A DNA stretch of 64,000 nt from a plasmid (NZ_CP137560.1), one strand, 5' to 3'; positions 7,078 through 22,884 are shown, counted from the first letter of the stretch. Translations and numbers: made by a program. Notes: generated by a model from the letters alone, not told the origin.

Positions 7078-9979
7078 GATTTTTCTTGTCTTTAAAATTG
7101 AATACCTTTTGTTCCTTGAGAACAAGTTGGGCAAACTCCAGTGGCTTCTTTATGCCACTGAGTTTCCAGTCTCTGACGTAAGTCTCAAGTGCTACCTGAT
7201 AGTTCGAACGAAGCATTTTTTTATATAGCTTTAGAGCTTCCTTCTCTTGCTTTTCAGTGGTATACGCCATGTAGCACTCCGGTGGTTCCTCCACGCCAAA
7301 GACATCACCCACCAAACCGCGCTTGATGAAAACTTCCATGAAAGGAGAGCGATTGTCCTTATTGTCCAGGGCATTGATGGTAAATATCTTCTGACAGTCA
7401 TTATCTGTCAGCGCCAAGGCAGCCTTGATCTCCGAGAACTTGTCCTTGAACCTGCTCTGGTCCAAAAGCATGAACACATCTGAATTATTCACGATTGCTT
7501 CCTTAACAATAGGAGAGGAAGTAATATCCTGGATTTCCTGGGTAACAACACCTACCATCGCCCAATGCTTTCTGGCAGTCTTATAGAGATACTTGATGTA
7601 GTTGGCCATGACTGGAGTGGCGATGGCCTTCCATGCTTCCTCGATAACTAGGCATTTTCGACCTTTTTTAATACGCATTTTCTGCGTAAAGACATCCATG
7701 ATGATGAGGACAATAATAGGAAAGAGCACAGGATCATCCTTTACCTTGTCTATTTCGAAGACTATGAACTTTTCATCGAAAAGTGTACTGTCCAAGTCAT
7801 TGTTCAAAATGTTCTCCTGCTCGCCACCCTTATAATAAGGCTTCAGAATAGCCGCAAAGTCGTGGATGGGAAACTCAATGTTCTGCTGCAAGATGAGCTG
7901 AGGGATTCTCTCCAAGGCAAACTCATAATAAGAGTTGAAGGATAACTCCGCAACCTTTAAGTTCTTTCTTTGTCGTTCGATTTTATCAATCTTACGCTCA
8001 ATCCTCTGCAAGTAGTTTCTCTCCACCAACTCCGGAGTGAGTCTTTGGAGCTGTTTTTGTGCAGCTTCCTTTTCACCCTCTGTGGCAGCACTGTCAACCA
8101 CTAGGGCTTGGAGTTTACTTTTCAAACGTTCATTGCGTTCTATTGATGAATCCTGCTCCAGAGTTTGTTCCATCTTTTCTTCAAACTCTCTTTCATACTG
8201 GTCATATTTTCCATTCTTCTTATCCTCAAGAAGGATGATTTCCTTCATTTGCTTTCTTTCAATAGCATTGAAATGCTCAAAAGGATGGAAATACTCCTCA
8301 TAATACTCCGTAATAGTCTGATTGATAATGGTATCTTCTATCTTGGTAGGATAATCTGTGCCCTTGAAGAGTTGGAAGATAAGGCTCTTGAGAAAATTCT
8401 TCTTCTCGCCAAAGTTCTCCTCATACTCTATCTTGGAAATTTTGAAAGGGTTCATGGAAATAGGTTTTTCCTTACTGTAAGAGATATAAGTTCCCTCAAA
8501 GTAATGACAGATACCCTCATAGCTATCTCCAGTATCCACAATTACGATATCTGTATCTTGTTCAAAATACTGTCTCATCACGGTGTTCATAAAGAAACTC
8601 TTGCCGCTTCCAGAGGGACCAAGGACGAAGAAATTGGCATTGTTGGTATATTTAACCTTACCTTCTTTTCCTGTGGTGTCTATAGGCAATGGCACTCCTT
8701 GTCGGTCAGTATAGTAGCATTTCAAGGGTGAATCATCTCCTTTTTGCTGGTGCTCCTTATACATCAAACATAAGGCTGGCTCGGACAAGGTGAGGAACCT
8801 GTCATAATCCGGATTCAGCTTGAAGCAATTCCCAGGAAAGCTTGCCACGAAGAGTTCTAGCTGGTTATAGGCTCTCTTGGAAATGTGTATGTTGTGCTTG
8901 GAAAAGAGATTCTCCAAGGCATTTGTAGCCTTTTGGAAATCCTTACCTCCATCCAGTTTGATGACCATGTTATAGTGGGCATATACAAGCGTCTTGCCGT
9001 TGCGGGCTATTTCAGATTGCACCTTATTGATGTCCTCAACGGCAATCTGATTGTTAGAATTAGGAATGGAAGCATGTCTGTTCTTTTTCTTGTCCAGTTT
9101 CATCATCTCCTTTTTTTGGTTAGGAAGAAAGATGACCTGATTATATACCAAGGTATCTACATCACCAAGGCTATCTATGTTAGATAGTAAGTCTTCTGAG
9201 AAAGACGCATTGCCCACTTGATTCTCAGAGAAAGGACGAATCGTGCCAGGAAGTCCAGCTTGGTCCACATCCAAAAGACTATAGACCTTGACATGCTCGT
9301 TTCCCATACCTATTTCCTCGTTGGTAACCTTAAAGTTACTCATGGCTACTGTCTCATGCTTGAAGTCCATGGCAAAAAAGCGCTCGGTAAATTCCCTGCA
9401 ATCTTCTGCGCTAAGGAAACTGCATTCCACATTGTAACCTGTTAAACGGTCCGCAACTTTCTGGAGCTTGACCAAGAAATCCTTCCATTTTGCACTATCA
9501 TAGCTATGAATACTACCATTCTTACCTTTTTGGGTAACAATGAGATAAGTGAAATGCTCCGTATAAGTGCGTCCATTGAAGAAACGGAAATAAGAATCAG
9601 AAAGGAATCTTTTCGATGGATCTCTATCCTCCAAGGATGATATTTTTTTCATATCAAAGCGCTTGCGAACAAATATATCTTGCTTATGAAGGGCATAGCC
9701 TTCACCCAATATTTGCAGGATAGAGGCAAACAAAGTTGTGAAATCATAATAGCTGCTCTTCTCGGCAGAATACTTTCTTACGGGATTCGTCATTTTCAAG
9801 ATGGCAGAATAGTCTCCTCCCTTTGTATAGACAATTCCCATATCATTTGTATCCTCCACGCTGAAATAAATGTCCTCAAATATCTTGGCTCTTTTACCTC
9901 CGGTGCCAAAGGCATAAACAGAAATGGCCATACCTATGGAGATAGCCACGAGGATTGTTATCACTGCGATTGCAACCAT
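7067..9979 (-). CDS. traG: conjugative transfer ATPase TraG (VirB4-like) of Bacteroidetes conjugative transposons
   Basis: 970 aa; N-terminal TM segment; Walker A GPSGSGKS; Walker B-like CLVIEEAWKA; overall TraG/VirB4 family architecture. Confidence 0.9.
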   Translation of the reverse strand: MVAIAVITILVAISIGMAISVYAFGTGGKRAKIFEDIYFSVEDTNDMGIVYTKGGDYSAILKMTNPVRKYSAEKSSYYDFTTLFASILQILGEGYALHKQDIFVRKRFDMKKISSLEDRDPSKRFLSDSYFRFFNGRTYTEHFTYLIVTQKGKNGSIHSYDSAKWKDFLVKLQKVADRLTGYNVECSFLSAEDCREFTERFFAMDFKHETVAMSNFKVTNEEIGMGNEHVKVYSLLDVDQAGLPGTIRPFSENQVGNASFSEDLLSNIDSLGDVDTLVYNQVIFLPNQKKEMMKLDKKKNRHASIPNSNNQIAVEDINKVQSEIARNGKTLVYAHYNMVIKLDGGKDFQKATNALENLFSKHNIHISKRAYNQLELFVASFPGNCFKLNPDYDRFLTLSEPALCLMYKEHQQKGDDSPLKCYYTDRQGVPLPIDTTGKEGKVKYTNNANFFVLGPSGSGKSFFMNTVMRQYFEQDTDIVIVDTGDSYEGICHYFEGTYISYSKEKPISMNPFKISKIEYEENFGEKKNFLKSLIFQLFKGTDYPTKIEDTIINQTITEYYEEYFHPFEHFNAIERKQMKEIILLEDKKNGKYDQYEREFEEKMEQTLEQDSSIERNERLKSKLQALVVDSAATEGEKEAAQKQLQRLTPELVERNYLQRIERKIDKIERQRKNLKVAELSFNSYYEFALERIPQLILQQNIEFPIHDFAAILKPYYKGGEQENILNNDLDSTLFDEKFIVFEIDKVKDDPVLFPIIVLIIMDVFTQKMRIKKGRKCLVIEEAWKAIATPVMANYIKYLYKTARKHWAMVGVVTQEIQDITSSPIVKEAIVNNSDVFMLLDQSRFKDKFSEIKAALALTDNDCQKIFTINALDNKDNRSPFMEVFIKRGLVGDVFGVEEPPECYMAYTTEKQEKEALKLYKKMLRSNYQVALETYVRDWKLSGIKKPLEFAQLVLKEQKVFNFKDKKNHDA

Positions 9980-10007: not shown

Positions 10008-10307
10008 TTAATATTTATATGAATGGGCAAAGATAAAAATGCCCTTTGGCGTCTTTTTGGTATGGAGTCCCTTATGCTGCTTGATGAAAATCATGGTTCC
10101 ACCCACACCTACCATCGTGGTAAGGAGAATGAGTCCTACCAAAAAGCCAAAAACAATATAGCCTGCAAGAAAGGATAGCAGCCCTCCTCCCACGGCTCCT
10201 GCGGCCCAATAGATGTATCTTCCCTTCAGTCCCATGAATTCAAGGGGCTTTTGAAGCCCCTTGAAAACAGGGAAATCTGGGAATTTCTCCTGTTCTGCTG
10301 TATTCAT
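10008..10307 (-). CDS. traF: conjugative transposon protein TraF (DUF4133-like small membrane protein)
   Basis: 99 aa, two TM helices, FKGL..PLEFMGL motif; immediately upstream of traG as in CTnDOT-type operons. Confidence 0.7.
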   Translation of the reverse strand: MNTAEQEKFPDFPVFKGLQKPLEFMGLKGRYIYWAAGAVGGGLLSFLAGYIVFGFLVGLILLTTMVGVGGTMIFIKQHKGLHTKKTPKGIFIFAHSYKY

Positions 10308-10317
10308 AAACTAATGA

Positions 10318-10578
10318 TTACAGACCAAAGAACAAAGGCAAGCTCTGAGCTGCGGCAATGAGGAAGATACAAGCACCTACTATCAGCATGATGCTCTTCT
10401 TGAAATCTTGCTGATTGTTCGTAACGTACTGATAATCAACACTGATTGGAATGATAAAATGACGAAAGAAACAAATTAGGAACAACATAATTGAGAAACC
10501 CCAAAATGAAAGTATGGGAAAACAAAAATTAACATAGAAAACAACGGAATTTTTCCGATTTTGGCATTCATAAATCAA
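10318..10578 (-). CDS. traE: chimeric TraE (DUF4134) ORF: authentic traE 3' end (10318..~10403) fused in frame to a repeat-encoded surrogate N-terminus
   Basis: C-terminus SIMLIVGACIFLIAAAQSLPLFFGL matches the TraE/DUF4134 C-terminal consensus; N-terminal 58 aa are encoded by the 248-bp repeat and recur verbatim at 13234..13608. Confidence 0.5.
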   Translation of the reverse strand: MIYECQNRKNSVVFYVNFCFPILSFWGFSIMLFLICFFRHFIIPISVDYQYVTNNQQDFKKSIMLIVGACIFLIAAAQSLPLFFGL

Positions 10579-10651
10579 CTACAAAAGAAGAATCTTATAA
10601 GTAGGTACATCTGTTTTCATTTTAACAGAATATAGTGATATGCAAGATAAA
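10404..10651. repeat. ~248-bp direct repeat, copy A (left end of the insertion in traE); carries a traE-like 5' coding segment
   Basis: Near-identical (a handful of mismatches) to 13434..13682; identity starts right after a TCTTGA at 10398..10403 and ends at gataaag. Confidence 0.85.
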
Positions 10652-10822
10652 GAGGGAAAGAGTCACTGTAAATCATACAAAAATCAATGGGATTTCCAAT
10701 TAGACAAATTATTTTCGCTTTTTATAATGATTTTCGGATTTAACAAACGATATTTGGAGAAGAATGAGTATTTTTGCAACCGAAAACAAAAATAATATAC
10801 GCAATGGCTTACGGAAAATCGT

Positions 10823-11020
10823 TTGTCAAGATTCCAAAATAGAATCACTCCGTCTTGGATAAAAGATATGGGGGAAAACGAGATTTTTGTGTTTGCCAGT
10901 AATGTCAACGGTTATCATGGAGGTGGACCTCATGTGAATTTTGAAACACTGAAGCCAAATCCCAACAAACCTGGAAAGATGATGGTTGATCAAAATTATC
11001 ATGTTTTCATAACCGAATAA
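10823..11020 (+). CDS. hypothetical small protein
   Basis: First ORF of a same-strand run of short AT-rich ORFs between the repeats. Confidence 0.25.
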   Translation: MSRFQNRITPSWIKDMGENEIFVFASNVNGYHGGGPHVNFETLKPNPNKPGKMMVDQNYHVFITE

Positions 11021-11024
11021 TAGA

Positions 11025-11285
11025 ATGAAAAAAGTCACATTAAATGTTCCGAATTATTCCCCTGATACCGGAGTGGCACTCAATTGGGAAGGTAATTTCA
11101 CAATTAAGGTCTCCGATATAAATGGGAGCGTCTCAATTGAGGCTAATACCGAGGGATTAGTTTCTTTAGCAAATCACTTGCTAAATTTATCCCAATCATC
11201 GGTTCCTATAGGAACTCATCTTCATCTTGATGAGTACAACTCTCTTGAAGAAGGATCTTTAGATTTAATAATCGAAAAGATTTGA
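11025..11285 (+). CDS. hypothetical small protein (immunity-protein-like size)
   Basis: 86 aa, 4-bp spacing from the upstream ORF. Confidence 0.3.
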   Translation: MKKVTLNVPNYSPDTGVALNWEGNFTIKVSDINGSVSIEANTEGLVSLANHLLNLSQSSVPIGTHLHLDEYNSLEEGSLDLIIEKI

Positions 11286-11348
11286 TTCCAATAAGTCTGT
11301 TTATGGGTCTGACAATACGATCCATAAACAAATCTAATAGATTAACAG

Positions 11349-11699
11349 ATGATTGAAGATATGTTCTTTTGCGTTCTTTCAATTGTAGTGGGAGGCTATT
11401 TAGTGTCTCAAAAATTAAGAGCTATTTATAATAGACTCCCCCTTTCTCTAAAAGATAAGATTTCTTTTGGGGAAGGACTCATCCTAATTATATCTGGGTT
11501 CATTGCATTATATGTGAAATCGGCTATACCAATTAATGCTTTGCTTTTTGGGTGTTTCCTACTTCCGAAAATGTATCAACAAGAAAAGTATTGGAATGCT
11601 CGTCGTTTTACAACCGCATACATAATGCATTGTAGCGGTTGGATTTTAAGTATAGGGCTTATTATCTATGGTATTCTCCAATTATTTCAGCCTATATAA
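11349..11699 (+). CDS. hypothetical small membrane protein
   Basis: 116 aa with 3-4 predicted TM helices. Confidence 0.35.
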   Translation: MIEDMFFCVLSIVVGGYLVSQKLRAIYNRLPLSLKDKISFGEGLILIISGFIALYVKSAIPINALLFGCFLLPKMYQQEKYWNARRFTTAYIMHCSGWILSIGLIIYGILQLFQPI

Positions 11700-11740
11700 A
11701 TTGTAAGAACATAGATTAGTTCAACAATAAAACAAATTCA

Positions 11741-12118
11741 GTGAGGCTATGTTTAAAAAAAATTGAAAATCGAATTGTTATCACACCGCCTTCAGGCATG
11801 ACTGTTGAGCAATTTGATGAGATGGTTATTAAAACAGGTAATAGCTTTGGAAATAATCCCAATATTACATACTGTTTAGAGCCATTCGAACAAACACAAG
11901 GTAATTGTAATTCAAGTTCAAGTACGTTGCTTTATAAAGCGGGGGTTCCTTTAAGTAGGATAAAGGATTTGAGGAAGCAAATATCAGGTTTTGTTTGGGG
12001 ATTTGGTGATATTAAACCGTGGACAGTAGAGGAACAGTCAAAAGCTGTTCAGAGGCAGAGGGAATTCGACCAACTCCGTAATGAAATGATGAACACAATC
12101 ATCCTTAACAAATATTAA
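11741..12118 (+). CDS. hypothetical protein
   Basis: 125 aa; stop overlaps start of next ORF (taaATG). Confidence 0.3.
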   Translation: MRLCLKKIENRIVITPPSGMTVEQFDEMVIKTGNSFGNNPNITYCLEPFEQTQGNCNSSSSTLLYKAGVPLSRIKDLRKQISGFVWGFGDIKPWTVEEQSKAVQRQREFDQLRNEMMNTIILNKY

Positions 12119-12595
12119 ATGAGAAAATTGAGTTTTAAAATGGTCATAAGAGCATATTTAATATGTGCTCTTATGACATCAATATTAGGAATTATATCAT
12201 GCAGTGTTCATGACATAATAAATTGGTTTCCAATCGTATTACTTTATGCTTGGATAATATTGTCTCCAATATCTATTTTAGCATTGATAACTGTATATTT
12301 ATTGGGAGTTCAAAGAGATTGGATTTGTAAGATACCGTTAATTTGCTTATGCGCATTTATAGTATATTTTATAAACCTAAACTCATCAGAATCTTATTTG
12401 ATTAATTTTTTTGCAACCCAAACCGTACCATATGACCTTCTATATTACAATAATGGAATAGAGATAAGGGTCAATGACACTATTTTTTCTATTTTCACAT
12501 GGGTATTATCGTATTTTATATTAGTATTGCTTATTGTTATATCTACAATTATGTATAGATTTTTTAAAAAGCATAGCAAAATAAAATTATTCTAA
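12119..12595 (+). CDS. hypothetical polytopic membrane protein
   Basis: 158 aa, at least four hydrophobic helices. Confidence 0.35.
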   Translation: MRKLSFKMVIRAYLICALMTSILGIISCSVHDIINWFPIVLLYAWIILSPISILALITVYLLGVQRDWICKIPLICLCAFIVYFINLNSSESYLINFFATQTVPYDLLYYNNGIEIRVNDTIFSIFTWVLSYFILVLLIVISTIMYRFFKKHSKIKLF

Positions 12596-12639
12596 AATAA
12601 AGTGTTCTCATTAGTGATGATACTAAATCATTCTGTACA

Positions 12640-13434
12640 ATGCTCACCATCCAGCACAGCGGCCCAGACGGTGAGATTACCACCACCTTCGAGTACGACG
12701 GCATACAGCGCCTTGTTCGTGTCACCGACATGGAGGGCAATGTAACGACCTCTACTTACGACATGGGTGACCGCCGTACTGAGGTGAACCATCCTGCAAG
12801 CGGCATCACAAGTTTCACTTATGATGCGCTCGGCAATGTGCAGACTAAGCAGACTGCCAACCTTGCCAAGGAAGGAAAGTTCATTACTTACGATTACGAC
12901 TATCAGCGTCTGACGGGTATCAACTACCCAGACCATCCGGAGAACAACGTGAAGTATTACTATGGTGGTCGCAACGCCTCTCAGAACCGTATCGGTAGAT
13001 TGATGCTCCGCGAGGACGGAACAGGTGCCATTGAGTATTTCTATGGCAAGATTGGCGAGGTGACGAAGACCCGCCGCACGATGATTGTGCCTAACCAGGC
13101 GATAGCAACCTACGTGACGCAATGGACTTACGACAGCCACAACCGTCTGTTGGAGATGATTTATCCTGATGAGGAGAAAATCACTTACTCTTACAATCTC
13201 GGTGGTCAGCTTGAAAAGGTCCATGGCTACAAGTCATACGGCTATGACTATGTGAGCAAGATTGGCTATGACAAGTTCGAGCAGCGCAGCTACCTGAAGT
13301 ATTGCAACGGCGCGGAGACATTCTACACCTTCGACAACCGCCGCCGTCTCAGCAATCTCGCGGTCAACAGCGGCAACACGTCCATCATGGACAATGACTA
13401 TACGTTTGACGCGGTGAGCAATGTCCTCTCTTGA
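12640..13434 (+). pseudogene. RHS/YD-repeat protein fragment (internal repeat region only; no N-terminus, no C-terminal tip)
   Basis: Repeated YD motifs (FEYDGIQRL, STYDMGDRR, FTYDALGNV, ITYDYDYQRL, WTYDSHNRL, YTFDNRRRL); abrupt GC-rich block in AT-rich surroundings; terminated by stop inside the TCTTGA junction with repeat B. Confidence 0.7.
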
Positions 13435-13682
13435 ATCTTGCTGATTGTTCGTAACGTACTGATAATCAACACTGATTGGAATGATAAAATGACGAAAGAA
13501 ACAAATTAGGAACAACATAATTGAGAAAACCCCCAAAAAAAGTATGGGAAAACAAAAATTAACATGGAAAACAACGAAATTTTTCCGATTTTGGCATTCA
13601 TAAATCAACTACAAAAGAAGAATCTTATAAGTAGGCACATCTGTTTTCATTTTAACAGAATATAGTGATATGCAAGATAAAG
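13434..13682. repeat. ~248-bp direct repeat, copy B (left end of the integrase-bearing element)
   Basis: Near-identical to 10404..10651; preceded by TCTTGA (13429..13434). Confidence 0.85.
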
Positions 13683-13818
13683 GTAACTATTCAGTTCACC
13701 ACTACACAGAATGATAAGATTGCTTAATAAATACGAAATAGTATAAACTTGTTTAATAAAAATAACAACATGTTTGTTTTTGGACTATATTTACAACAAA
13801 TTTTAAAATTTATCAATT

Positions 13819-14178
13819 ATGTATATGGCTAATACTGCTACGGATACGTTGTCAACGGAAACCATGAATCCTCCAAAAGGTTCTTATGTCAATATGGTTG
13901 GTCAAGCGACAGGGAAAAGAGTAAGTGGAACTATCTCCAATGTTTCATATGATGTTCTTAATGCAAGTAAGAAAGTGTTGCTTCAAGATGTTTATCTTGC
14001 GACATATACTTCAAAAAGCGGTGATAGTGGGGGTATTGTATATGCTCTACGTTCAGCACACAATCAACGTCTAACTGTAGGTATAAATATAGGTTCTGCA
14101 AAAATTAACCGTACTACTTATGGCATGTGTGTAAAAGCATCGAATATAAATAGAATTTTTGGACTTACAAGATACTAA
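13819..14178 (+). CDS. orphan C-terminal half of a trypsin/chymotrypsin-fold serine protease domain (possible toxin-tip fragment)
   Basis: KSGDSGGIVY (GDSGG serine nucleophile motif) followed by GINIGSA, but no upstream His/Asp barrel; only 119 aa. Confidence 0.4.
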   Translation: MYMANTATDTLSTETMNPPKGSYVNMVGQATGKRVSGTISNVSYDVLNASKKVLLQDVYLATYTSKSGDSGGIVYALRSAHNQRLTVGINIGSAKINRTTYGMCVKASNINRIFGLTRY

Positions 14179-14187
14179 AGGGCTGTC

Positions 14188-14697
14188 ATGAATTTCTTAT
14201 TTAAGACATTTTGCATTATGGTCATATTCACGATGTTCGTGGATATGACCGCTCTAAGTAATAACATAACGAATAGAGATGGTTTATGGCGTGTTGATTC
14301 AGACTCCGTCACAATTACCACAAGCTATAGTGAGAAACAGCCAGAAAAATTAAATGTATGCATTTATAATCACAGCAATTCGACGATATATATAGGGCGA
14401 ACTTATGGATTGTTGATGCAAGTAGATGGGGAATGGAAATACATTGCCAAAGGTAGAAATCAAAAGTGCATAACTATATGGCCAGCGTCAAAACGTAACT
14501 TTCAAGTCAGTCTATGCGCTAAGAAAATAAAAAGCTCCTCTGGATGGGCATATAGAACAGATTCACTTTACAAAGTAAGATTTGACATGTATGACAGCGA
14601 TGGCGTTTTTATTGACAAAATGGACTCTGATTTCAAAGTTTCTGGTAATATTGTTTGGCATCTGACTGACGGATTAGTGATTATACATTTAGATTGA
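14188..14697 (+). CDS. secreted/membrane-anchored hypothetical protein (candidate immunity partner)
   Basis: N-terminal hydrophobic signal/anchor MNFLFKTFCIMVIFTMFVDMTALS; 10-bp spacing from the upstream ORF. Confidence 0.4.
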   Translation: MNFLFKTFCIMVIFTMFVDMTALSNNITNRDGLWRVDSDSVTITTSYSEKQPEKLNVCIYNHSNSTIYIGRTYGLLMQVDGEWKYIAKGRNQKCITIWPASKRNFQVSLCAKKIKSSSGWAYRTDSLYKVRFDMYDSDGVFIDKMDSDFKVSGNIVWHLTDGLVIIHLD

Positions 14698-14706
14698 ATA
14701 TTCCAA

Positions 14707-15111
14707 ATGCGACATCTCAATTCTTCAATATACGTAGATTGGTTGGATCCATCAATGCCCGCTCGTACATGTGGAAGAACAGCAGAAAATATAAAAGAGA
14801 AAATAAAAAAATATGATAAGTTTATACTTGTTGCTACAGAAGGTGCTATTGCGTCAAAATGGTGCAATTGGGAATTAGGCTTTGGTGATGCTCAAAAGTA
14901 TGCTTACGGTAAAATAGCCTTATTTCCTATCCGTTATGACGAAAAGGATTGGTCAGAAAGTGAATACTTAGAACTATATCCTGTTATAGGATATATTGAT
15001 AGTTGTCAATATTCGGATGAGTTTAATCAATCCCTTTTTACAGGTTATTATGTTTTTTGTCATTATGGCACGAAGAAGGCAATAAAATTGGTTGATTGGT
15101 TATCGAGATAA
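14707..15111 (+). CDS. TIR-like domain protein (stand-alone, 134 aa)
   Basis: KFILVATEGAIASKWCNWEL closely resembles the TIR alphaC-region motif (cf. [20 protein letters not shown] in TLR TIR domains); size matches a single TIR domain. Confidence 0.4.
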   Translation: MRHLNSSIYVDWLDPSMPARTCGRTAENIKEKIKKYDKFILVATEGAIASKWCNWELGFGDAQKYAYGKIALFPIRYDEKDWSESEYLELYPVIGYIDSCQYSDEFNQSLFTGYYVFCHYGTKKAIKLVDWLSR

Positions 15112-15169
15112 TAATAGAAATCGCCTAACTTTAAGTGCAAACTTAATGTTAGGCAGTAACTCGTCTATC

Positions 15170-15772
15170 TCATATATAGTTCTGTGCAATTATCATTCCA
15201 ACACCTCCTGCAACAACAAAGATACCAATCGTGAAGAAAAAACAAAAGAACCATTGTGCATAGTGACCGAGATAGCAACCATCATATTCCTTGTAGCGTT
15301 CACGGACTTTCTTCCGTTCATCGGCAAACATGGAATTGACCTCACGGATATGCATCTGCATCTGTGCGGTCATCCATTGGCGTTCTTTGGCAAACAGTTC
15401 TTGGATTTTCTGCCAGTCAGCATCATTGACATTTACAGACACCTTTAATTTAGTGGAAGCATTCTCCAAGACCTTGTCTATGTGCTGATTGATGGTATCT
15501 ACCTTTTTGCCGATGGTAGTCACAGCACCACCCAATTGAACTTCCGAACGCTGATACTGCTGAATGGCAGACTCCAGTTCAAGTGTGGCATTGATGAAGG
15601 TGTCGGTTGCCTTATCAATGTCCTTACTCAACTGCTTCAACTCAGGAACACGGTTTACAAGTCCGTCTTCGGCTTGCTGTTCCTCGACCTCGTTTTCGAC
15701 ATCATTCATCATGTTGTCGAAGTCGGATCTTTCTTCTGTGTCTATGTTTATCTTGCTTTTTCTGATTGCCAT
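15170..15772 (-). CDS. hypothetical coiled-coil protein with C-terminal TM anchor, downstream of relaxase
   Basis: 200 aa, acidic coiled-coil N-terminus, hydrophobic C-terminal ~35 aa; 12-bp gap after relaxase. Confidence 0.4.
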   Translation of the reverse strand: MAIRKSKINIDTEERSDFDNMMNDVENEVEEQQAEDGLVNRVPELKQLSKDIDKATDTFINATLELESAIQQYQRSEVQLGGAVTTIGKKVDTINQHIDKVLENASTKLKVSVNVNDADWQKIQELFAKERQWMTAQMQMHIREVNSMFADERKKVRERYKEYDGCYLGHYAQWFFCFFFTIGIFVVAGGVGMIIAQNYI

Positions 15773-15784
15773 ATTGTTATTGAT

Positions 15785-17017
15785 TTATCGGTGGAAACTT
15801 CTACTGCGTGGTTTAGGCTTGCACATGGAATGAGCCATCTGTGCGCAACGGTGGGCAAACTTCCAGTCATCTTCATCGTCTTTCTTTCCCCAACCAGATT
15901 CAGGAGAAGAACCGCCACCGCCACATGACTCAGACATGGAAGTGGCTGCATCAATGTACCCTGCAAACAACAGCATTGCTACATGAGCGACATTCTCCGT
16001 TGTCGCTATATCATTATCCTCTGGAATCTGAGCCTCATTAGTAAAGACATCTTTGACAGAGTTCGGAATCCACACCTTCTTGACTCCATCGCCAATGTTA
16101 ATTTGGAATGCTGTTTTTGAAGGTTGAACTTGTGCCTTTGGTTGTGATGCTGTTGAAGTCTGAGCGACAGGACGAACTGGGCGAGGCGTTGAAGCAACGG
16201 ATGGTGAAACAGGCTTTTCCTTGACCTGTGTAGGTTGTGGGTGCAGTTTCTTCCATGTGTCTTCAATCTTTGACACCATGTACTTTCTGCCAATCTCAGA
16301 AGCCTTGAACACGGAAGCGTTCTTGCCGACTGTATAGCCGACAAGTTTCCGCTGCTTGTCGTAACGAGGTTTAACCTCATAGCCTTTCATGCGCAACAGA
16401 TTGAAATATCTGTCAATGTTGAACTGCTGCATATCTTTGAGGATATGTTCGCAATCCTCCGCAAGTTCAGCCTTTCGCATATTCCGAATCTCCTGCGGTT
16501 GTTCCCATCCATGGCGCTTATTGATGATTTCCGCAGCCTTCATTGCCCGAAGGTGAATATCGTGTACATCATTGGTCTTACCCTCCATATCCACACGACA
16601 ACAATCAATGTGAAGGTGCAGCATTCCAGACTTGGAATCAGAGTGCAGTCCGCCCACATTCATAGAATTGGTGAAGTTGGTCTTTATTTCATTGGAGAAA
16701 CCGTTGGGCGAAAGTCCAACAGAATCCAAAACTCCCAATGCTTCGTCTTGGAGGTTTGCCCAATCTGCCATCGTGAAGTTTGCAGACTCTTCCTTTGATG
16801 GGGAAAGTACAAAAGTGGTCATGAACCTTTCCAACTTTCTGCCAACCGTCCTTTCCGCCTGATGATACTGGCAATGATGCTTCATCATGTACCAGATGGC
16901 GGTAGGGTCAAGACCATCGGGCATGTTGTTCACCTTGACCGTCTTTGCCTTCTCCTTTTCCAATGCGTACCTTACGGAATTGCCTCCATACGATACGACC
17001 TTTGCGAGCATAATCAT
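15785..17017 (-). CDS. mobilisation relaxase (MobA/VirD2-type relaxase domain, Bacteroides MobB-like)
   Basis: N-terminal MIMLAKVV.YGGNSVRYALEKEK motif (relaxase motif I with Tyr), HLHID His-cluster motif, Pro/Ser-rich linker. Confidence 0.8.
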   Translation of the reverse strand: MIMLAKVVSYGGNSVRYALEKEKAKTVKVNNMPDGLDPTAIWYMMKHHCQYHQAERTVGRKLERFMTTFVLSPSKEESANFTMADWANLQDEALGVLDSVGLSPNGFSNEIKTNFTNSMNVGGLHSDSKSGMLHLHIDCCRVDMEGKTNDVHDIHLRAMKAAEIINKRHGWEQPQEIRNMRKAELAEDCEHILKDMQQFNIDRYFNLLRMKGYEVKPRYDKQRKLVGYTVGKNASVFKASEIGRKYMVSKIEDTWKKLHPQPTQVKEKPVSPSVASTPRPVRPVAQTSTASQPKAQVQPSKTAFQINIGDGVKKVWIPNSVKDVFTNEAQIPEDNDIATTENVAHVAMLLFAGYIDAATSMSESCGGGGSSPESGWGKKDDEDDWKFAHRCAQMAHSMCKPKPRSRSFHR

Positions 17018-17424
17018 GATTGTTCCTTTGATTTTGTCTGTACGTTTGTTGCGATATTCTCTTCAATGCTATACCAATGTTGGATAAGTCCTGCAACGGC
17101 ATCAATCCACCAACGCATGAACTTCTCATTCTTGAAGAACCGAGCCTTTTCCTCAGCCGTTTTCTTGGATAGCACGTTGCTGATTTTTATCAAATCCGTC
17201 CTTGCGATGGCGAGAGAGTTGAGAGCGTCCACCTCTTCCTTGGTGAGCCTCATGCGTGGACGGTGCTTTAAGCCAGTCTCAACGACATAGCGGCTCAGGC
17301 TTAACCCACACTCCTTGGCATGTGTCTGGAGACGTTTCAATTCCTCTTCCGTGCATCGGTAGGTATGGACTTCCGTAGGCGGTTTTCTTATGATGTTCTT
17401 CTTTCTCATTTGTTCTTGTCTCAA
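17014..17424 (-). CDS. MobC-family relaxosome accessory protein
   Basis: 136 aa; overlaps relaxase start by 4 bp; RHH-like ...CTEEELKRLQTHAKECGLSLSRYVVE... typical of small Bacteroides Mob proteins. Confidence 0.65.
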   Translation of the reverse strand: MRQEQMRKKNIIRKPPTEVHTYRCTEEELKRLQTHAKECGLSLSRYVVETGLKHRPRMRLTKEEVDALNSLAIARTDLIKISNVLSKKTAEEKARFFKNEKFMRWWIDAVAGLIQHWYSIEENIATNVQTKSKEQS

Positions 17425-17503
17425 ATTAAAATGGGATGATTACAAGCATCTTACAAAGGTGGTCACGACTGCGAGCCTGCGAGTAGTCCGAGAAACTTTT
17501 AGG

Positions 17504-17534
17504 AATACAGAAAGACGGACACGGCTTCTGTATT
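17504..17534. promoter_or_regulatory. candidate oriT hairpin: AATACAGAA-(13 nt)-TTCTGTATT inverted repeat in the mobC-upstream intergenic region
   Basis: Perfect 9-bp inverted repeat in the 270-bp gap upstream of mobC, where oriT is found in NBU-type elements. Confidence 0.3.
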
Positions 17535-17694
17535 ACAAAAGGATTTCTCGAAAAGTACCTATAAAATGACGGCACTTTTAACAGCCTCCGTCCCCAAGGC
17601 TGCTTAAACGTATAACAGTTGGGCGGTAGCCTATGGCGGTTAATCGTCCTTTGGGATGATTTTTATGTATAGTGGCTTATTTGCCTCTGTATGC

Positions 17695-18519
17695 CTATTG
17701 ATTGCCGTTATGGTATTCGTTAGGTTTGTAGCCATTGGCATTAGAACCGTTCGACTGTTGTGTTTGACCTCCAAACTGATGCTGTGGATATGTGTTGTGC
17801 TCTCCCTCATTCTGTTTGGCATCTGCTTCTTGCAGGGAAGAAGGATTGCCAACAGACTGTCTGGAGTAGTTTTGCTGTGGAGAAATTCCACCAGTAATAG
17901 CATCGGAAAGATTGCCATTAGTTCCGATCTTACCCACGCTTCCATTATCATTAGATGAAGCCGAATTTAGGGAAGAAGAAATATCTGCCGTAGAAGAATT
18001 GCCCTTTTTGTCTGTATCGGATATTCCATTGGAAAAATGCCCATCTTCCTTGTCCGACTTTGTATCAACCCCCGTTGTCGTAACAATTACTCTTACTTGT
18101 GGAACTTCCGTGTGGATGATTGCAGAGCCATCAGTATTGCGCTTCAATGAAAATCCGTTCTTGAAAAATCTTCCGTCCACATACCAACCAGAGAGGGAAT
18201 GCAGGGTAATGATGCGGTTGTCTCCAACTTTTTGTGAAGAGGAAATCCCCACAGCCTCCATAGCCTGTAAAAGTTTGGGTACGGTCTTGCGGTCTTTATC
18301 CCAGAGTTTGGCAAGTTGGGTATTGTCAACCATACATTGCCCACACAAGATTTCCACTTGTTGGGTCTTGCTGATAGGTACAAGTGTTGTTTCACGTTCG
18401 GCAAGAGAGGCAAGAGACATGAAGCATTCCATGCGGTCAATCTTGTACTTCTTGCAGCGAAGATACTCCATCTGTACATCGGACAGCGTGAAGTAGTAAT
18501 GTATCTTTTGTTTATCCAT
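17695..18519 (-). CDS. conserved mobile-element backbone protein (paralog of 552..1202)
   Basis: Motif LAKLWDKDRKTVPKLLQAMEAVGI shared with 552..1202; Ser/Gly/Asn/Gln-rich C-terminal tail. Confidence 0.5.
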   Translation of the reverse strand: MDKQKIHYYFTLSDVQMEYLRCKKYKIDRMECFMSLASLAERETTLVPISKTQQVEILCGQCMVDNTQLAKLWDKDRKTVPKLLQAMEAVGISSSQKVGDNRIITLHSLSGWYVDGRFFKNGFSLKRNTDGSAIIHTEVPQVRVIVTTTGVDTKSDKEDGHFSNGISDTDKKGNSSTADISSSLNSASSNDNGSVGKIGTNGNLSDAITGGISPQQNYSRQSVGNPSSLQEADAKQNEGEHNTYPQHQFGGQTQQSNGSNANGYKPNEYHNGNQ

Positions 18520-18583
18520 CTTCTGTAAATTTTGAATATTATAACCATAAATGGCAAGACTGTTTTTCTCAGTAAAGAGAAAA

Positions 18584-18901
18584 TCATCTGTGCCGTCCTC
18601 TCCTTGGGGAAATGTCCTCTGCTATAACATAGAGCTCGCCTTGCAACCTGTCATTAGAATGGCTGCTTAATCGTGAAATGCACTCAATGCAGACAGACTG
18701 GGCAAGAAGTTTTCTTCTTCCGACAGTTGCTTCATCATTGATGCCCTTGTTGGCTCCGCATTGTTCGGCAAGCTGATTGAAAGCATCACGCATCCGAAAG
18801 TAGCCGTTGCCAGTATTGATGTAGCTCACGGCAAGGTCAGCGACATTCGCCAACTTGCTTCTGTACTCCTCATGGGAAATATCGTCCTTCATCATCGCCA
18901 T
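18584..18901 (-). CDS. hypothetical protein, mobile-element backbone
   Basis: 105 aa; 2-bp gap from the HTH gene. Confidence 0.35.
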   Translation of the reverse strand: MAMMKDDISHEEYRSKLANVADLAVSYINTGNGYFRMRDAFNQLAEQCGANKGINDEATVGRRKLLAQSVCIECISRLSSHSNDRLQGELYVIAEDISPRRGRHR

Positions 18902-18903
18902 GT

Positions 18904-19221
18904 CTATTTACAAAGTTCACTCATGTGCTTGGTCGCTGCAGCCTTGGTCTCAGCCTCGGACATACTGCGGTTCTGGCGCATCCAGTTCAAAAGTTCGGAC
19001 TTCTCAAAGTAGATAATCTTGCCGTTGGGACGGAAGAACGGAAGTTCATGCTTGTGTGTCATCTTGTAGAGACTACTCTTTGATATACCCATGAATAAGG
19101 CTGCTTCCTCCAGTGTCAATACTTGCTTGGCATCACGGAGTAGGTTCTCCATTATCCCAATGCGGTGCTCATGTGACTCTACCTTCAAGAGAAGAGTCTC
19201 GGTGTCGATAGTTTTGTTCAT
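18904..19221 (-). CDS. helix-turn-helix DNA-binding protein, excisionase-like
   Basis: LTLEEAALFMGISKSSLYKMTHKHELPFFRPNGKIIYFEKSELLNWMRQ; paralog of 1626..1958. Confidence 0.6.
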   Translation of the reverse strand: MNKTIDTETLLLKVESHEHRIGIMENLLRDAKQVLTLEEAALFMGISKSSLYKMTHKHELPFFRPNGKIIYFEKSELLNWMRQNRSMSEAETKAAATKHMSELCK

Positions 19222-19360
19222 TATCCTGTAATTTATTGTTTGTAATTCGTTGTACTGCTTGTTTTGAAAGTGTAGTCCCCCAAGACAGAGAGAATTCCCT
19301 GCCCGAAAAATGGGGACTACAAAAGTGAAATTTACTGGTTGTTATCCTGAAAAGTTCCGT

Positions 19361-20677
19361 TTACTTGTTATCCTGTAAAAAAGTTATTCTGCGTGGATGG
19401 GTGTTGGTGGCTGCTGTCCGCTTTGTCCTCGGTATTTGCTTGTTCTCCTCACGCTGTTTGCGACCTCGAAAGGCTTTCTTCGTGTTGTCAACAGCCTTGA
19501 CCTTTTCATTCGTCAGCACATCTGCATAGATGGCGGTGGATTTGAGCGACTTGTGTCCCATCAGTTTCTTGGTAGTCTCAATGTTGCCGGTAACCGCCTG
19601 CACCAAAATTCCGAATGTATGTCGGGAACAGTGAAAAGAGATATTCTTCTCAATGCCCACCTTTTTGGCTATCCTTTTAAGGGCAGCATCCACATTAGCC
19701 TTAGCAGGAAGGTGGAACACAAAATCATCATCACCTTTGGGTGGCATCCATGACAAGGCGGTATTGCCGATTGGTACGGCATTGAGAGCCTTTGTTTTCT
19801 TTTGGACGATTACAAGCGTGTTCGTTTCCTTGTTTCTCTTGATGTCACTCCACCGCAGAGCCTTGATGTCGCTTATACGAAGTCCTGTCAGACAGGCGAA
19901 ACCGAAAGCCTTTTGTGTCTCTGCAACTCCTGGACTTCTCTCATCTGAAGCCATGAACCTTTTCAGTTCATCGGGAGTGAGATACTGCTTATGTGATGAC
20001 TTTGGCTTGGGAAAGATGTCAGACTTCTCCAACAGGTAGAAAGGGTTAGCCTTCAATTTACCGAACTTGACAGCCTTGTTGAATACCGCCACTGTGCGCT
20101 GTTGAACATTGTGAAGCGAGCCTTCACACAAAGGCTTGGCTTCAACTCGTACATACTTCTGTGGTACATAGTCGTTCTTCAGCCAAAGGAAGAAAGCCTT
20201 GAACCATTCCTTGTCGAACTTCCTCAGAGTGATGTGAGGTCTGCGCTTGTTGGCAAGGAACTCGCTCATTAGGTATTTCAAATACTTTGACTGGTCAACA
20301 ATAGCCTTGGAGTAGTCTGTATTGTCGCTCATCCAGTCGATGTAAGTCTGGATCCAGTCCATGACTTCGGGAGACTCGTCATTGGGGATTTCCTTCACAA
20401 TCATCAAGTGACCTACCTCTGGGATGGTCTCTGGATGAAGAATACGCTCTGCCCTTATCTGGTGAGCACGTTGCAATGTTTCTTCGTTTCTTGCTTTGGT
20501 CTCTGCATCAACCTCTGGCAACAAATAGAGAGAAAGAAATTCAAACTTGCGCTTGCCACCATCGTAGATGTCAAGATACAAGCTTATGTTGTCGTTGGCA
20601 AGTGCCTTTTGTCTGATAGTTATTGTCATGTCTATATATATATTCGTTGTCAATGATTTATGTGAACATACCGTCAA
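19361..20677 (-). CDS. tyrosine site-specific integrase with N-terminal arm-DNA-binding domain
   Basis: N-terminal ISLYLDIYDGGKRKFEFLSLYL arm-binding-type domain; C-terminal HCSRHTF...LMGH...STAIYADV (R-H-R-Y catalytic signature). Confidence 0.85.
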   Translation of the reverse strand: MTVCSHKSLTTNIYIDMTITIRQKALANDNISLYLDIYDGGKRKFEFLSLYLLPEVDAETKARNEETLQRAHQIRAERILHPETIPEVGHLMIVKEIPNDESPEVMDWIQTYIDWMSDNTDYSKAIVDQSKYLKYLMSEFLANKRRPHITLRKFDKEWFKAFFLWLKNDYVPQKYVRVEAKPLCEGSLHNVQQRTVAVFNKAVKFGKLKANPFYLLEKSDIFPKPKSSHKQYLTPDELKRFMASDERSPGVAETQKAFGFACLTGLRISDIKALRWSDIKRNKETNTLVIVQKKTKALNAVPIGNTALSWMPPKGDDDFVFHLPAKANVDAALKRIAKKVGIEKNISFHCSRHTFGILVQAVTGNIETTKKLMGHKSLKSTAIYADVLTNEKVKAVDNTKKAFRGRKQREENKQIPRTKRTAATNTHPRRITFLQDNK

Positions 20678-21830
20678 TGAGGTTTATGGCTTCCTCCTTC
20701 TTCTTATCCACGATTTTAGCATAGATTTCCGTGGTCTGAATGTTGGAATGTCCCATCAGCTTGCTTGTGGTAAAAAGGTCTGCACCGAGAGTGAGCATCA
20801 TCGTTCCGAACGTGTGCCGTGAGCTATGGAATGAGATATGCTTCTCTATCCCTGCCGCTTCCGCCCATTTGCGGAGAGCCCTGCCTATAACGGTCTGTGT
20901 GGTCGGTATGTCAAAGAAAGGAATATCATTTCCTCTTGGCTTTGGCAACCACCGCTTAGCCTCTTCCGAGAGAGGTATTATAACTGGCTTCTCCGTCTTT
21001 TGCATTTCCATGTCTATGTATTCGCCCTTTCCGTCAGCGGTCTTGAAGATGTGCATCGGAGCAAGATGGTACATGTCACTTAATCGCAATCCAGTAAAAC
21101 AGGCGAAGATGAAAGCCTCCTTGACCTCTGGGCGGTAACTGTCCGTAGCCATGAGGGTACGAAGTTCCTCAATGGTCAGATACTCTTTCTTGCCGTCCTT
21201 GGGCTGAATGCGCTCACGTGCATCAAGTTCTTTCATAGGGTTGTTGCGAATAATGCCTTGTCGCACAGCGTTATTGAGAGCAGTGGAGAACATTCCGAGG
21301 TATCGGCTTGCCGTATTCTCGCTGATTGGTCTTGGCTCGCCATACTTGATATGGGAGTTTGGGAAGTTACGCAAGAACTTCACATATCCACGGCAGAACT
21401 CCGCATTGACCTCTTCAAGCGAAATGAAGCCTTTGTTGGTCTCGTCAAGATACTTCTCCACGGTGTGCAGCATTTCCACACGGCAATGGAGCGTTGACTT
21501 CTTGATGCCGACACCACCTTCACAATACTTCTTTATCCATGTGGTAAGAAGCATCGAGCCTTGTTTTACTGTCTCCCAGTCCTGTATGCCGTGACCATGC
21601 AGGGCTTTGATGCGCTCTGCCTTGATGCGTTCTGCAACTGCCATAGTCTGCTTGTTCTGTTCCTTGCAAATGGGATTGATTTCGGGAACGAGGTAGAGTT
21701 TGAGGTATTCATACTTCCTCACTCCCTTGTAGTAGATGTCAAGATAGATACTCTTGTTGCCATCTGCGAGCGACTTCAACCGAATTTTAATCGGTTCTTT
21801 CAGCTTTACTTGTTTCTTTGGTCTTGCCAT
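20658..21830 (-). CDS. tyrosine site-specific integrase (second, tandem copy)
   Basis: SIYLDIYYKGVRKYEYLKLYL N-terminal domain; HSSRHTF...LMGHSNIQTTEIYAKI catalytic motifs; 20-bp overlap with the downstream integrase. Confidence 0.85.
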   Translation of the reverse strand: MARPKKQVKLKEPIKIRLKSLADGNKSIYLDIYYKGVRKYEYLKLYLVPEINPICKEQNKQTMAVAERIKAERIKALHGHGIQDWETVKQGSMLLTTWIKKYCEGGVGIKKSTLHCRVEMLHTVEKYLDETNKGFISLEEVNAEFCRGYVKFLRNFPNSHIKYGEPRPISENTASRYLGMFSTALNNAVRQGIIRNNPMKELDARERIQPKDGKKEYLTIEELRTLMATDSYRPEVKEAFIFACFTGLRLSDMYHLAPMHIFKTADGKGEYIDMEMQKTEKPVIIPLSEEAKRWLPKPRGNDIPFFDIPTTQTVIGRALRKWAEAAGIEKHISFHSSRHTFGTMMLTLGADLFTTSKLMGHSNIQTTEIYAKIVDKKKEEAINLIDGMFT

Positions 21831-21978
21831 GATGTATGAAGTGTTATTTTGTTTTTGTATTCTGCTACATTGGAGGGTCTTTCTCCCTCTTGTTGAAAGT
21901 TCATGTCAGATATGGTTTCCTATGCTGACATTTGCTTTTCTTTCTCTTCCCTTACTTCGGAAAACTGATGTAAAGATA

Positions 21979-22024
21979 AGAAAACAAACCGAGAAACGAG
22001 AAACAAAACGGAAACAAGAAACAG
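21979..22024. repeat. cluster of 4-5 direct (A/G)GAAAC(A/G) repeats; candidate integrase arm-type sites at the int-proximal element end
   Basis: aagaaaacaaaccGAGAAACGAGAAACaaaacgGAAACaaGAAACag between the integrase start and the traE junction. Confidence 0.4.
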
Positions 22025-22028
22025 TCTT

Positions 22029-22469
22029 TTATGTCTTTTTAAGAGTGAGTTTAGCAAACATCGGAAAATTCAAATTGTCGCTTAAAGCATTGATACTTAG
22101 CGCATTTACTTTCATTTGCTTTCTTGTCTTTTCAAACGCATTTTGTAGGACTAAGATATTCTTGACATCCTGCTCCTCGTTGTTCATCTTCACATACACG
22201 GAGATAGCACCGATGATAGCTACGATACCTGCAATGGCATAGCAGAGGTTGGTGACCACAGGCACATACTTCTTCAAGCTATCTGTAGAGGTCTCGATGG
22301 CTGCAAGACCGGCATCCACATTCTGTGCGAAAGTGGAAATAGACACCACCAAGAGCATCATGGTCAACATACCCATGCGTGGGTTAGAAACGAAAGACTT
22401 GGCTTTCTTCACAGTGGCTGTGGCGCAACGTTTTGCGCCGCAAGCCAAATTACTGATTACTTTGTTCAT
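22029..22469 (-). pseudogene. traE: traE 5' fragment (DUF4134 signal peptide and first TM, through ...VYVKMNNEEQDVK) whose ORF then runs into element DNA
   Basis: MLTMMLLVVSISTFAQ signal peptide and AIETSTDSLKKYVPVVTNLCYAIAGIVAIIGAISVYVKMNNEEQDVK are TraE-like; the following 43 aa (NILVLQNAFEK...) are encoded by the inserted element. Confidence 0.6.
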
Positions 22470-22530: not shown

Positions 22531-22884
22531 TTACCACAAATGATCGGTTACACCATAATGGAAACCGAAGAATGATGGGAAGACCACCGTGGAAACACAT
22601 AGGAAAATCAAACTTCCTATCAGAATAATCACGCTCTTGGTGAATCCTTCCTCTCCAGTTTGCATCTTAATGTAGATGTTGGTAGCACTATAGAGCGACA
22701 GCAAGGTGGCAATAGCGTACATGAGCTGAGCCACGTAGGAGCACATGGTCAGCACATAGGTGACCATATCATATAGCCTTCCGGTATTGCCGCTATAATC
22801 TGTTGTACCACAGTTGGCCATCGCAACCTGAGAGCATAGAAGCATGAGCAGGGCTAATGCCAATAGTCTAAAGTTATCCTTCAT
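22531..22884 (-). CDS. TraE-like DUF4134 family small membrane protein (complete paralog)
   Basis: Signal peptide plus ...YIKMQTGEEGFTKSVIILIGSLIFLCVSTVVFPSFFGF matching the DUF4134 C-terminal pattern. Confidence 0.55.
   Translation of the reverse strand: MKDNFRLLALALLMLLCSQVAMANCGTTDYSGNTGRLYDMVTYVLTMCSYVAQLMYAIATLLSLYSATNIYIKMQTGEEGFTKSVIILIGSLIFLCVSTVVFPSFFGFHYGVTDHLW

Follow-up and report, generated by a model that had tools for sequence, protein, structure and literature searches.

Integrative mobilizable elements (IMEs) residing in conjugation genes carried by integrative and conjugative elements (ICEs) have been described for Firmicutes, where IMESp2907, Tn6104, and IME_Sco1050_traG are found in genes of Tn5252-superfamily ICEs (traG/VirD4, Maff2-like, and SNF2-like genes; Guedon et al. 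2017, PMC5704250; Coluzzi et al. 2017, PMC5357655). Other IMEs, with tyrosine integrases, occupy the oriT nic site of Tn916/ICESt3-type ICEs (PMC5704250; PMC5357655). Here, we describe a related arrangement in a 64,000-nucleotide stretch of plasmid NZ_CP137560.1 (the window; positions are counted from its first letter). In this stretch, traE, the VirB2-like pilin gene of a conjugative element of the Prevotellaceae mating-pair formation type B (MPF-B), is split by an insert that is very probably a site-specific IME with this traE position as its dedicated attachment site, the excision of which would restore traE. The principle of an IME in a conserved ICE conjugation gene is known from Firmicutes, and the case is not conceptually unprecedented; full-text searches of the literature library retrieved no account of an element that targets traE in Prevotella or Bacteroidales.

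Like the Firmicutes IMEs, the insert represents a small, putatively mobilizable element that splits a conserved ICE conjugation gene serving as attachment site. Unlike these, it is found in MPF-B systems of Bacteroidota, its target is the VirB2-like pilin gene traE, and it encodes two tandem tyrosine integrases of the predicted CTnDOT/NBU class, whereas the gene-internal Firmicutes IMEs use serine recombinases. With the Bacteroidota IMEs NBU1, NBU2, and Tn4555, which are mobilized by CTnDOT-type elements, it shares an integrase of the IntCTnDOT subgroup, an excision helper, and its own, here predicted, relaxase. NBU1 is known to integrate into secondary sites as well. By description only, NBU1 and NBU2 differ in their integration into tRNA gene 3' ends without disruption and Tn4555 in its low specificity, and none of them has an integrase pair or a tra gene target. 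The mobilization genes follow the three-gene layout of MbpA/MbpB/MbpC from pLV22a, with best NCBIfam matches to MbpA and MbpB followed by a third small gene, but the scores are far below the equivalog cutoffs (MbpA, 55 versus 90 bits; MbpB, 81 versus 400 bits), as expected for distant relatives rather than orthologues.

The split traE gene and its unoccupied site

In an initial annotation based on the sequence alone, traE was proposed to be split by an insertion of approximately 11.7 kb, with the C-terminal part ending at 10403 and the N-terminal part resuming at 22166. Both the split and the junction proved correct: traE (DUF4134) is interrupted after codon 103 by 11,762 bp (10404-22165, one repeat copy counted in). 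A minus-strand open reading frame (ORF) of 146 aa at 22029..22469 begins with TraE residues 1-103 and then continues through 43 codons that originate from the element, and residues 104-129 form the C-terminal end (...KKSIMLIVGACIFLIAAAQSLPLFFGL) of the 86-aa minus-strand ORF 10318..10578. The 7-bp direct repeat TTCTTGA (plus strand) is present at 10397-10403 and 22159-22165 and therefore sets the bounds of the insert to 10404-22165.

Joining of the flanks gave an uninterrupted TraE of 129 aa, as the initial annotation had predicted. It matched the Pfam DUF4134 profile (PF13572) at positions 2-93 of 93 with E=3.5e-31, whereas the single pieces covered positions 2-70 (N-terminal part) and 58-93 (C-terminal part). 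A weak match to TrbC/VirB2 was additionally obtained (E=0.0013), and TraE has been referred to as the VirB2 homologue of MPF-B systems (Guglielmini et al. 2014, PMC4027160).

When proteins were searched with the reconstructed TraE, intact 129-aa sequences of 98% identity were retrieved (P0001 and P0002), and uninterrupted traE genes thus exist. The unoccupied site itself was found in the corresponding five contigs from human-gut metagenomes (L001-L005), which carry the conjugative element of the window; when aligned to its joined flanks, they showed 98.7-98.9% identity through 5,739 bp without interruption. Within 120 nt around the junction, the alignments were ungapped with 2-3 mismatches and contained a single TCAAGAA. 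The gene order in these contigs is a 157-aa gene, a DUF4134 paralogue, traE, traF (DUF4133), and traG (VirB4), with traE-traF-traG being arranged identically in the window.

The 86-aa ORF 10318-10578, a fusion of element sequence with the C-terminal end of TraE, is not regarded as a gene because a TAA stop is located four codons ahead of the junction in four other copies of the element. Likewise, the 43-codon tail of the N-terminal TraE part was rejected as selected coding sequence: its variable sites are distributed 17/17/19 over the three codon positions, and earlier stops occur in 3 of 72 variants. Both are incidental.

Gene content of the insert and recurrence of its attachment site

Both integrases (int1 and int2, Table 1) contain the Arm-DNA-bind_5, Phage_int_SAM_5, and Phage_integrase domains with scores above the cutoffs, and their translations show the R, HxxR, and H…Y motifs (TGLRLSD, HSSRHT, and GHSN..TTEIY in int1). 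On the basis of this domain set, they are assigned to the CTnDOT/NBU class of tyrosine integrases; the Bacteroidota IntCTnDOT subgroup is defined by an arm-binding N-terminal domain, an enlarged core-binding domain, and a catalytic domain (PMC8138268). The true start of int2 is probably the ATG at ~20629. The int1 product showed 98-99% identity to those of five other copies (L009, L010, L013, L016, and L036), the excisionase-like protein was 100% identical in six other copies, and all backbone ORFs of the window are of full length relative to the other copies.

Domain searches with all ORFs of 10404-22165 identified no VirB4, coupling-protein, mating-pore (type IV secretion system) or other tra domain, and no DDE transposase was detected in the element by the same approach. 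The combination of integrases, an excisionase-like protein, and mobilization genes without mating-pore genes therefore corresponds to the gene set of an IME. The backbone had no match among PLSDB plasmids, and an exact-protein look-up of the window relaxase gave no match. Motifs of the type GRAAA(A)CAA are found four times in the far arm and three to four times in the integrase-proximal arm, in a single orientation, compared with 0.84 per kb for the whole window; they are conserved in other copies and represent candidate arm-type sites. At the far end, no outward Bacteroides-type promoter (TAnnTTTG) was identified. Scans for sigma-70 promoters and terminators remained at chance level, including the one that gave no terminator-like hairpin between the N-terminal part of traE and int1.

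A genome scan with the window relaxase, covering one genome per species, revealed the same backbone between the two parts of traE in Prevotella sp. B2-R-102 (L009), Prevotella merdae (L010), Leyella stercorea An906 (L016), and Segatella copri F3-48 (L036), with amino acid identities of 92-100% for all eight genes. Incomplete copies in support of this arrangement show the traE C-terminal side only (L008 and L049) or the N-terminal side only (L014). In the other occupied loci, the host TraG is only 53-59% identical to that of the window. The element lengths vary between 10.0 and 13.1 kb in the other copies. In every copy, int, xis, and mob lie on the downstream side of the tra operon and have its orientation. 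At the integrase end, all junctions share the host sequence …CAGGAYG, followed by TCAAGAA and the element sequence TATCTTAGTCC…; the far ends are equally alike, with …AATCAGYAAGATT, TCAAGAA, and GARSAT… in succession.

Among the 120 best TraE cluster representatives, 45 leave the TraE sequence directly after …EEQDVK and continue with NILVL…, comprising 30 alleles of the N-terminal part and 31 tails; one such allele is found in both the intact (P0001) and the interrupted state (P0021 and P0022). A scan of metagenome contigs with the integrase-end sequence yielded 116 informative attL junctions, of which 92 were located in traE at the same codon, with 49 distinct 45-nt host flanks that include the divergent …KMQNGDQD clade. 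From these junctions and the recurrence in diverged hosts, traE is therefore concluded to be the primary attachment site of the family. The remaining 24 junctions (20 distinct) lie outside traE and share (G)ATG directly followed by T(C/A)AAGAA. The canonical heptamer was present at 99 of the 116 metagenome junctions and in L009, L010, L016, and L036. Core variants beside canonical element ends were TGAAGAA (nine traE junctions) and TGAAAAA (attR of L008), which suggests that mismatches in the 7-bp overlap may be tolerated and is compatible with the tolerance of heterology expected of the IntCTnDOT subgroup. When read from the joined ends, the core of the inferred circular form would be flanked by the inverted repeat AAGAT-N9-ATCTT.

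The initial annotation, which did not name the kind of element inserted, had further concluded that the insertion is recent enough for both halves to read cleanly. The clean halves were confirmed; recency as the sole reading was not, since dozens of independent insertions are equally clean. As judged from these sequences, clean halves in dozens of independent insertions into diverged traE alleles probably reflect precise, reversible integration more than mere recency.

Copies at sites outside traE that share …GATG ahead of TCAAGAA include L013 (4450-4866), L191, L080, L083, L094, and L107, among others. The copy in L013 lies beside a HigA-like antitoxin gene, and that in L191 adjoins an orphan far-end remnant. 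The resulting succession of far end, core, and integrase end in L191, the only one encountered, was considered as a circle or tandem and rejected; chromosomal SusC/D and GroEL genes are located upstream, and the remnant is therefore an orphan end. The mob module was found on two contigs each in Prevotella sp. 885 (L006/L012) and Leyella stercorea MSK.21.24 (L007/L008), where more than one copy or variant of the element may coexist in one strain. Relatives of the relaxase also occur in bins labeled Lachnospiraceae, Lachnospira, Aeriscardovia, and Oscillospiraceae (L015, L026, L031, and L052), which are probably mis-binned Bacteroidales mobile elements.

Table 1. Features of the split traE locus, of the inserted element, and of its cargo in the window
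Feature	Position	Strand	Basis or remark
traG/VirB4, intact	7067-9979	-	downstream tra gene
traF (DUF4133), intact	10008-10307	-	downstream tra gene
traE 3' part, remainder of codon 104 to stop	10318..10396	-	DUF4134 match, empty-site alignment
Core/overlap copy, far junction (attR)	10397..10403	.	7-bp repeat
IME, composite copy	10404..22158	-	backbone on minus, co-oriented with tra operon; cargo on plus
Far-end arm	10404..10652	.	terminal ~165 nt (10404-10568) 84-88% conserved at far end of other copies; four GRAAA(A)CAA
Cargo segment 1, RHS-array-derived modules	10653..13433	+	contents include 65-aa ORF and 116-aa transmembrane protein
Imm32	11025-11285	+	cargo segment 1
Toxin-tip remnant	11741-12118	+	cargo segment 1
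Immunity-like gene, 158-aa transmembrane protein	12119-12595	+	cargo segment 1
RHS-repeat fragment	12640-13434	+	cargo segment 1
Internal second copy of terminal 249 nt	13434..13682	.	97% identity; abuts truncated RHS fragment
Cargo segment 2	13683..15169	+	protease remnant, Big_14-like, TIR_2
GDSGG protease gene, 3' remnant, 119 aa	13819-14178	+	cargo segment 2
Big_14-like partner gene of protease	14188-14697	+	cargo segment 2
TIR_2 protein	14707-15111	+	cargo segment 2
Third mobilization-module gene, 200 aa	15170-15772	-	adjoins relaxase gene
MbpB-like predicted relaxase, 410 aa	15785-17017	-	MbpB E=7.4e-23, under curated cutoff
NikA/MbpA-like mobilization protein, 136 aa	17014-17424	-	PF21983 45.7 bits, above cutoff; MbpA E=4.9e-15
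Two backbone genes (105 aa, 274 aa)	17695..18901	-	without family match; 90-99% conserved in other copies
Excisionase-like HTH_17 protein	18904..19221	-	PF12728 E=1.1e-13; TIGR01764 'excise' 41.7 bits versus cutoff 28.8
int2, tyrosine integrase	19361..20677	-	same three domains as int1; ~33% identity to int1
int1, tyrosine integrase	20658..21830	-	Arm-DNA-bind_5 + SAM_5 + Phage_integrase
Integrase-proximal arm	21831..22158	-	97-98% conserved in other copies; 3-4 same-orientation GRAAA(A)CAA motifs
Core/overlap copy, integrase-proximal junction (attL)	22159..22165	.	TTCTTGA on plus, TCAAGAA on minus
traE 5' part, codons 1-102 (codon 103 within 7-bp core)	22166..22469	-	DUF4134 profile 2-70; 98% identity to intact P0001/P0002
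DUF4134 paralogue, intact, not targeted	22531..22884	-	upstream of split traE; own DUF4134 match; kept in occupied and empty elements

Cargo and composite structure of the window copy

The window copy differs from the others in a second, internal copy of its terminal sequence, located 3,030 bp inside the terminal copy (10404-10652), exactly where the RHS-repeat ORF is cut. The other copies have one end copy each, and only the last ~165 nt are common to their ends and that of the window. The position of the internal end copy beside the RHS fragment therefore points to the accretion of RHS-derived cargo: as read from its sequence, the window copy is a composite that has accreted RHS-derived toxin-remnant and immunity cargo. 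The GC content is 0.34-0.37 in the cargo versus 0.45 in the backbone. Chromosomal RHS polymorphic-toxin arrays, with full-length RHS toxins ahead of orphan toxin-tip and immunity modules, likewise contain the genes that flank the internal copy.

The junction of RHS fragment and end copy is also present in L068, L070-L072, and L075 and was therefore inherited rather than newly formed; L068 contains both end copies as in the window, without 11337-12965. In comparison to L069/L070, a deletion of 836 bp (breakpoint 13815-13825, ~10 nt overlap) cut the gene of a 401-aa protease to 119 aa, and 1 nt was lost at the internal junction of the window copy. The internal end copy may originate from an integrase-mediated event or from a nested insertion with homologous deletion afterwards; a secondary site in RHS that resembles the core, into which the element would have integrated, is unsupported, as the intact RHS sequence at the break is unlike the core. 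The cargos of other copies comprise SacI-type restriction-modification systems (L009 and L016), a beta-lactamase/esterase fusion together with an insertion sequence (L036), and, in L010, a secreted protease in complete form along with its partner.

To the right, the host conjugative element probably ends near 36-37 kb. Further on, at 37474-64000, the window contains housekeeping or other nonconjugation genes that are probably chromosomal, namely those for RtcB, Memo/AMMECR1, a radical SAM protein, a carboxylesterase, TerC, and a C10 peptidase with Por secretion tail.

Alternative explanations, proposed mechanism, and significance

Several observations weigh against the insert being a functional, traE-restoring IME. 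An exact-pattern scan of the metagenome contigs for an excised circle or attP junction gave 0 matches. An intact DUF4134 paralogue is encoded directly upstream, and loss of the split traE might therefore be tolerated. The intact RHS sequence at the internal break (AATGTGCTCAGCGTGG) has no similarity to the core. Finally, the relaxase was assigned with scores below the curated cutoffs, and Pfam Relaxase was matched only with E=0.0022; with these subthreshold matches, the identity of the relaxase appears as the weakest link of the IME assignment. The missing circle and the intact paralogue, together with the decay of the cargo (the 836-bp protease deletion and the 1-nt loss at the internal junction), would also suit a site-specific but now fixed passenger, with a host element that is dead or relies on the paralogue and a traE that is never restored. 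We consider this unlikely because the two cores are identical and both arms match the consensus of the other copies, the int1, int2, xis, and mob genes are of full length with 92-100% identity to other copies, occupied and empty states coexist for one traE allele, and the tra genes on the flanks are intact, with 98.9% identity to their counterparts in empty elements.

A single recent and essentially random transposon-like insertion, the halves of which are clean only because little time has passed, has a very low probability. The halves in the window are 2-3 residues off intact alleles and an identical N-terminal allele exists in both states, which is compatible with a recent window copy. Yet at least 49 distinct traE flanks have the insertion at this position, in this orientation, and with this 7-bp core, as do hosts with TraG proteins of 53-59% identity, the sites outside traE share …GATG ahead of TCAAGAA, and the element encodes tyrosine integrases with arm-binding domains and no DDE transposase; on sequence grounds, random insertion is already contradicted by this recurrence. 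Practically negligible is an origin of the TraE pieces from different paralogues or from an assembly chimera. Although the operon holds two DUF4134 genes, the paralogue at 22531-22884 is separate and complete on its own, so that the halves belong to one gene, as initially annotated; the empty contigs are collinear with the joined flanks over 5.7 kb, and the interrupted arrangement was assembled independently in isolate genomes and >90 metagenome contigs. This explanation is already refuted by the empty-site alignments. For the cargo end, we weighed an integron-like array of immunity genes as found in the acquired interbacterial defense (AID) and recombinase-associated AID (rAID-1) clusters of gut Bacteroidales, in which the 249-nt repeat would serve as cassette recombination site for the adjacent recombinases. 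The rAID-1 clusters consist of a 5' XerD-like recombinase (>44% identity to BF9343_RS08045) and at least two codirectional low-GC genes (Ross et al., 10.1101/471110). The insert shares with them orphan immunity genes and toxin remnants of low GC on a mobile element; Imm32, the RHS remnants, and the immunity-like genes occur in chromosomal RHS arrays as well, the repeat is located at module boundaries, and its junction with the RHS fragment recurs in other contigs. However, a leading XerD-like recombinase with codirectional genes is lacking, and the recombinases are encoded ~5 kb away at the other end and on the opposite strand to the cargo. Moreover, there are just two repeat copies, one of which is the true element terminus, and copies whose cargo is unrelated (restriction-modification systems, beta-lactamase fusion) have its last ~165 nt conserved at their ends, the cargo being one of several alternatives. 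Membership in rAID-1 was thus rejected on architecture, the low GC content (0.34-0.37) being in line with it, and an array of this kind is improbable.

For the preferred interpretation as traE-specific IME, we propose that integration proceeds by conservative exchange at the 7-bp overlap between attP (…AATCAGCAAGATT-TCAAGAA-TATCTTAGTCC…) and attB in traE (…GAGCAGGATG-TCAAGAA-GAGCATC…). This exchange would split the pilin gene after codon 103 and place int, xis, and mob downstream of, and co-oriented with, the tra operon. Since TraE is regarded as a VirB2-like pilin, the pilus should be disabled or altered in the integrated state, except where the upstream paralogue makes up for the loss. Excision by the integrase(s) together with the excisionase-like protein would leave an exactly restored traE. 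The predicted relaxase would allow the circular element to use the mating apparatus of the host element, and the element would then re-enter traE of an element in the recipient. For IMEs of Firmicutes that reside in ICE genes, such a model of transfer and restoration has been put forward (Guedon et al. 2017, PMC5704250).

As a tentative and rather speculative extension, the element could act as an excision-gated switch on the host pilin gene, tra genes of Prevotellaceae conjugative elements could represent general landing pads for several IME families, and the paired integrases could possibly form a heteromeric recombinase. As int, xis, and mob always lie on the downstream side of the tra operon and in its orientation, transcription of tra would extend into them. 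Induction of tra would then trigger excision, traE would be rebuilt, and transfer of both elements would be licensed, with a ride assured for the IME; this read-through coupling is only a hypothesis. In Leyella stercorea An906 (L016:16576-20969), the traG/VirB4 gene of the conjugative element carrying the traE-IME is cut after the Walker A motif (…GPSGSGKSFHM). The element responsible is unlike the traE-IME and encodes a helix-turn-helix protein, a 379-aa tyrosine integrase with ~30% identity to int1, and an excisionase-like protein. Judging from this case, several IME families may use tra genes as landing pads.

Annotation pipelines would label the truncated 146-aa TraE as 'DUF4134 family protein' and thereby overlook both the element and the intact gene. 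A mobile element that is very common in human-gut Prevotellaceae is now defined down to its exact att sites; among the closest TraE protein clusters, ~40% are of the interrupted type. From inside their pilin gene, the element parasitizes conjugative elements and ferries variable cargo, in the window interbacterial toxin-immunity modules and in other copies either SacI-type restriction-modification systems or a fusion with a beta-lactamase. What had been described for Firmicutes ICEs so far is thereby extended to Bacteroidota and to tyrosine integrases, and a testable model is provided for a hitch-hiker that would gate or tax conjugative transfer.

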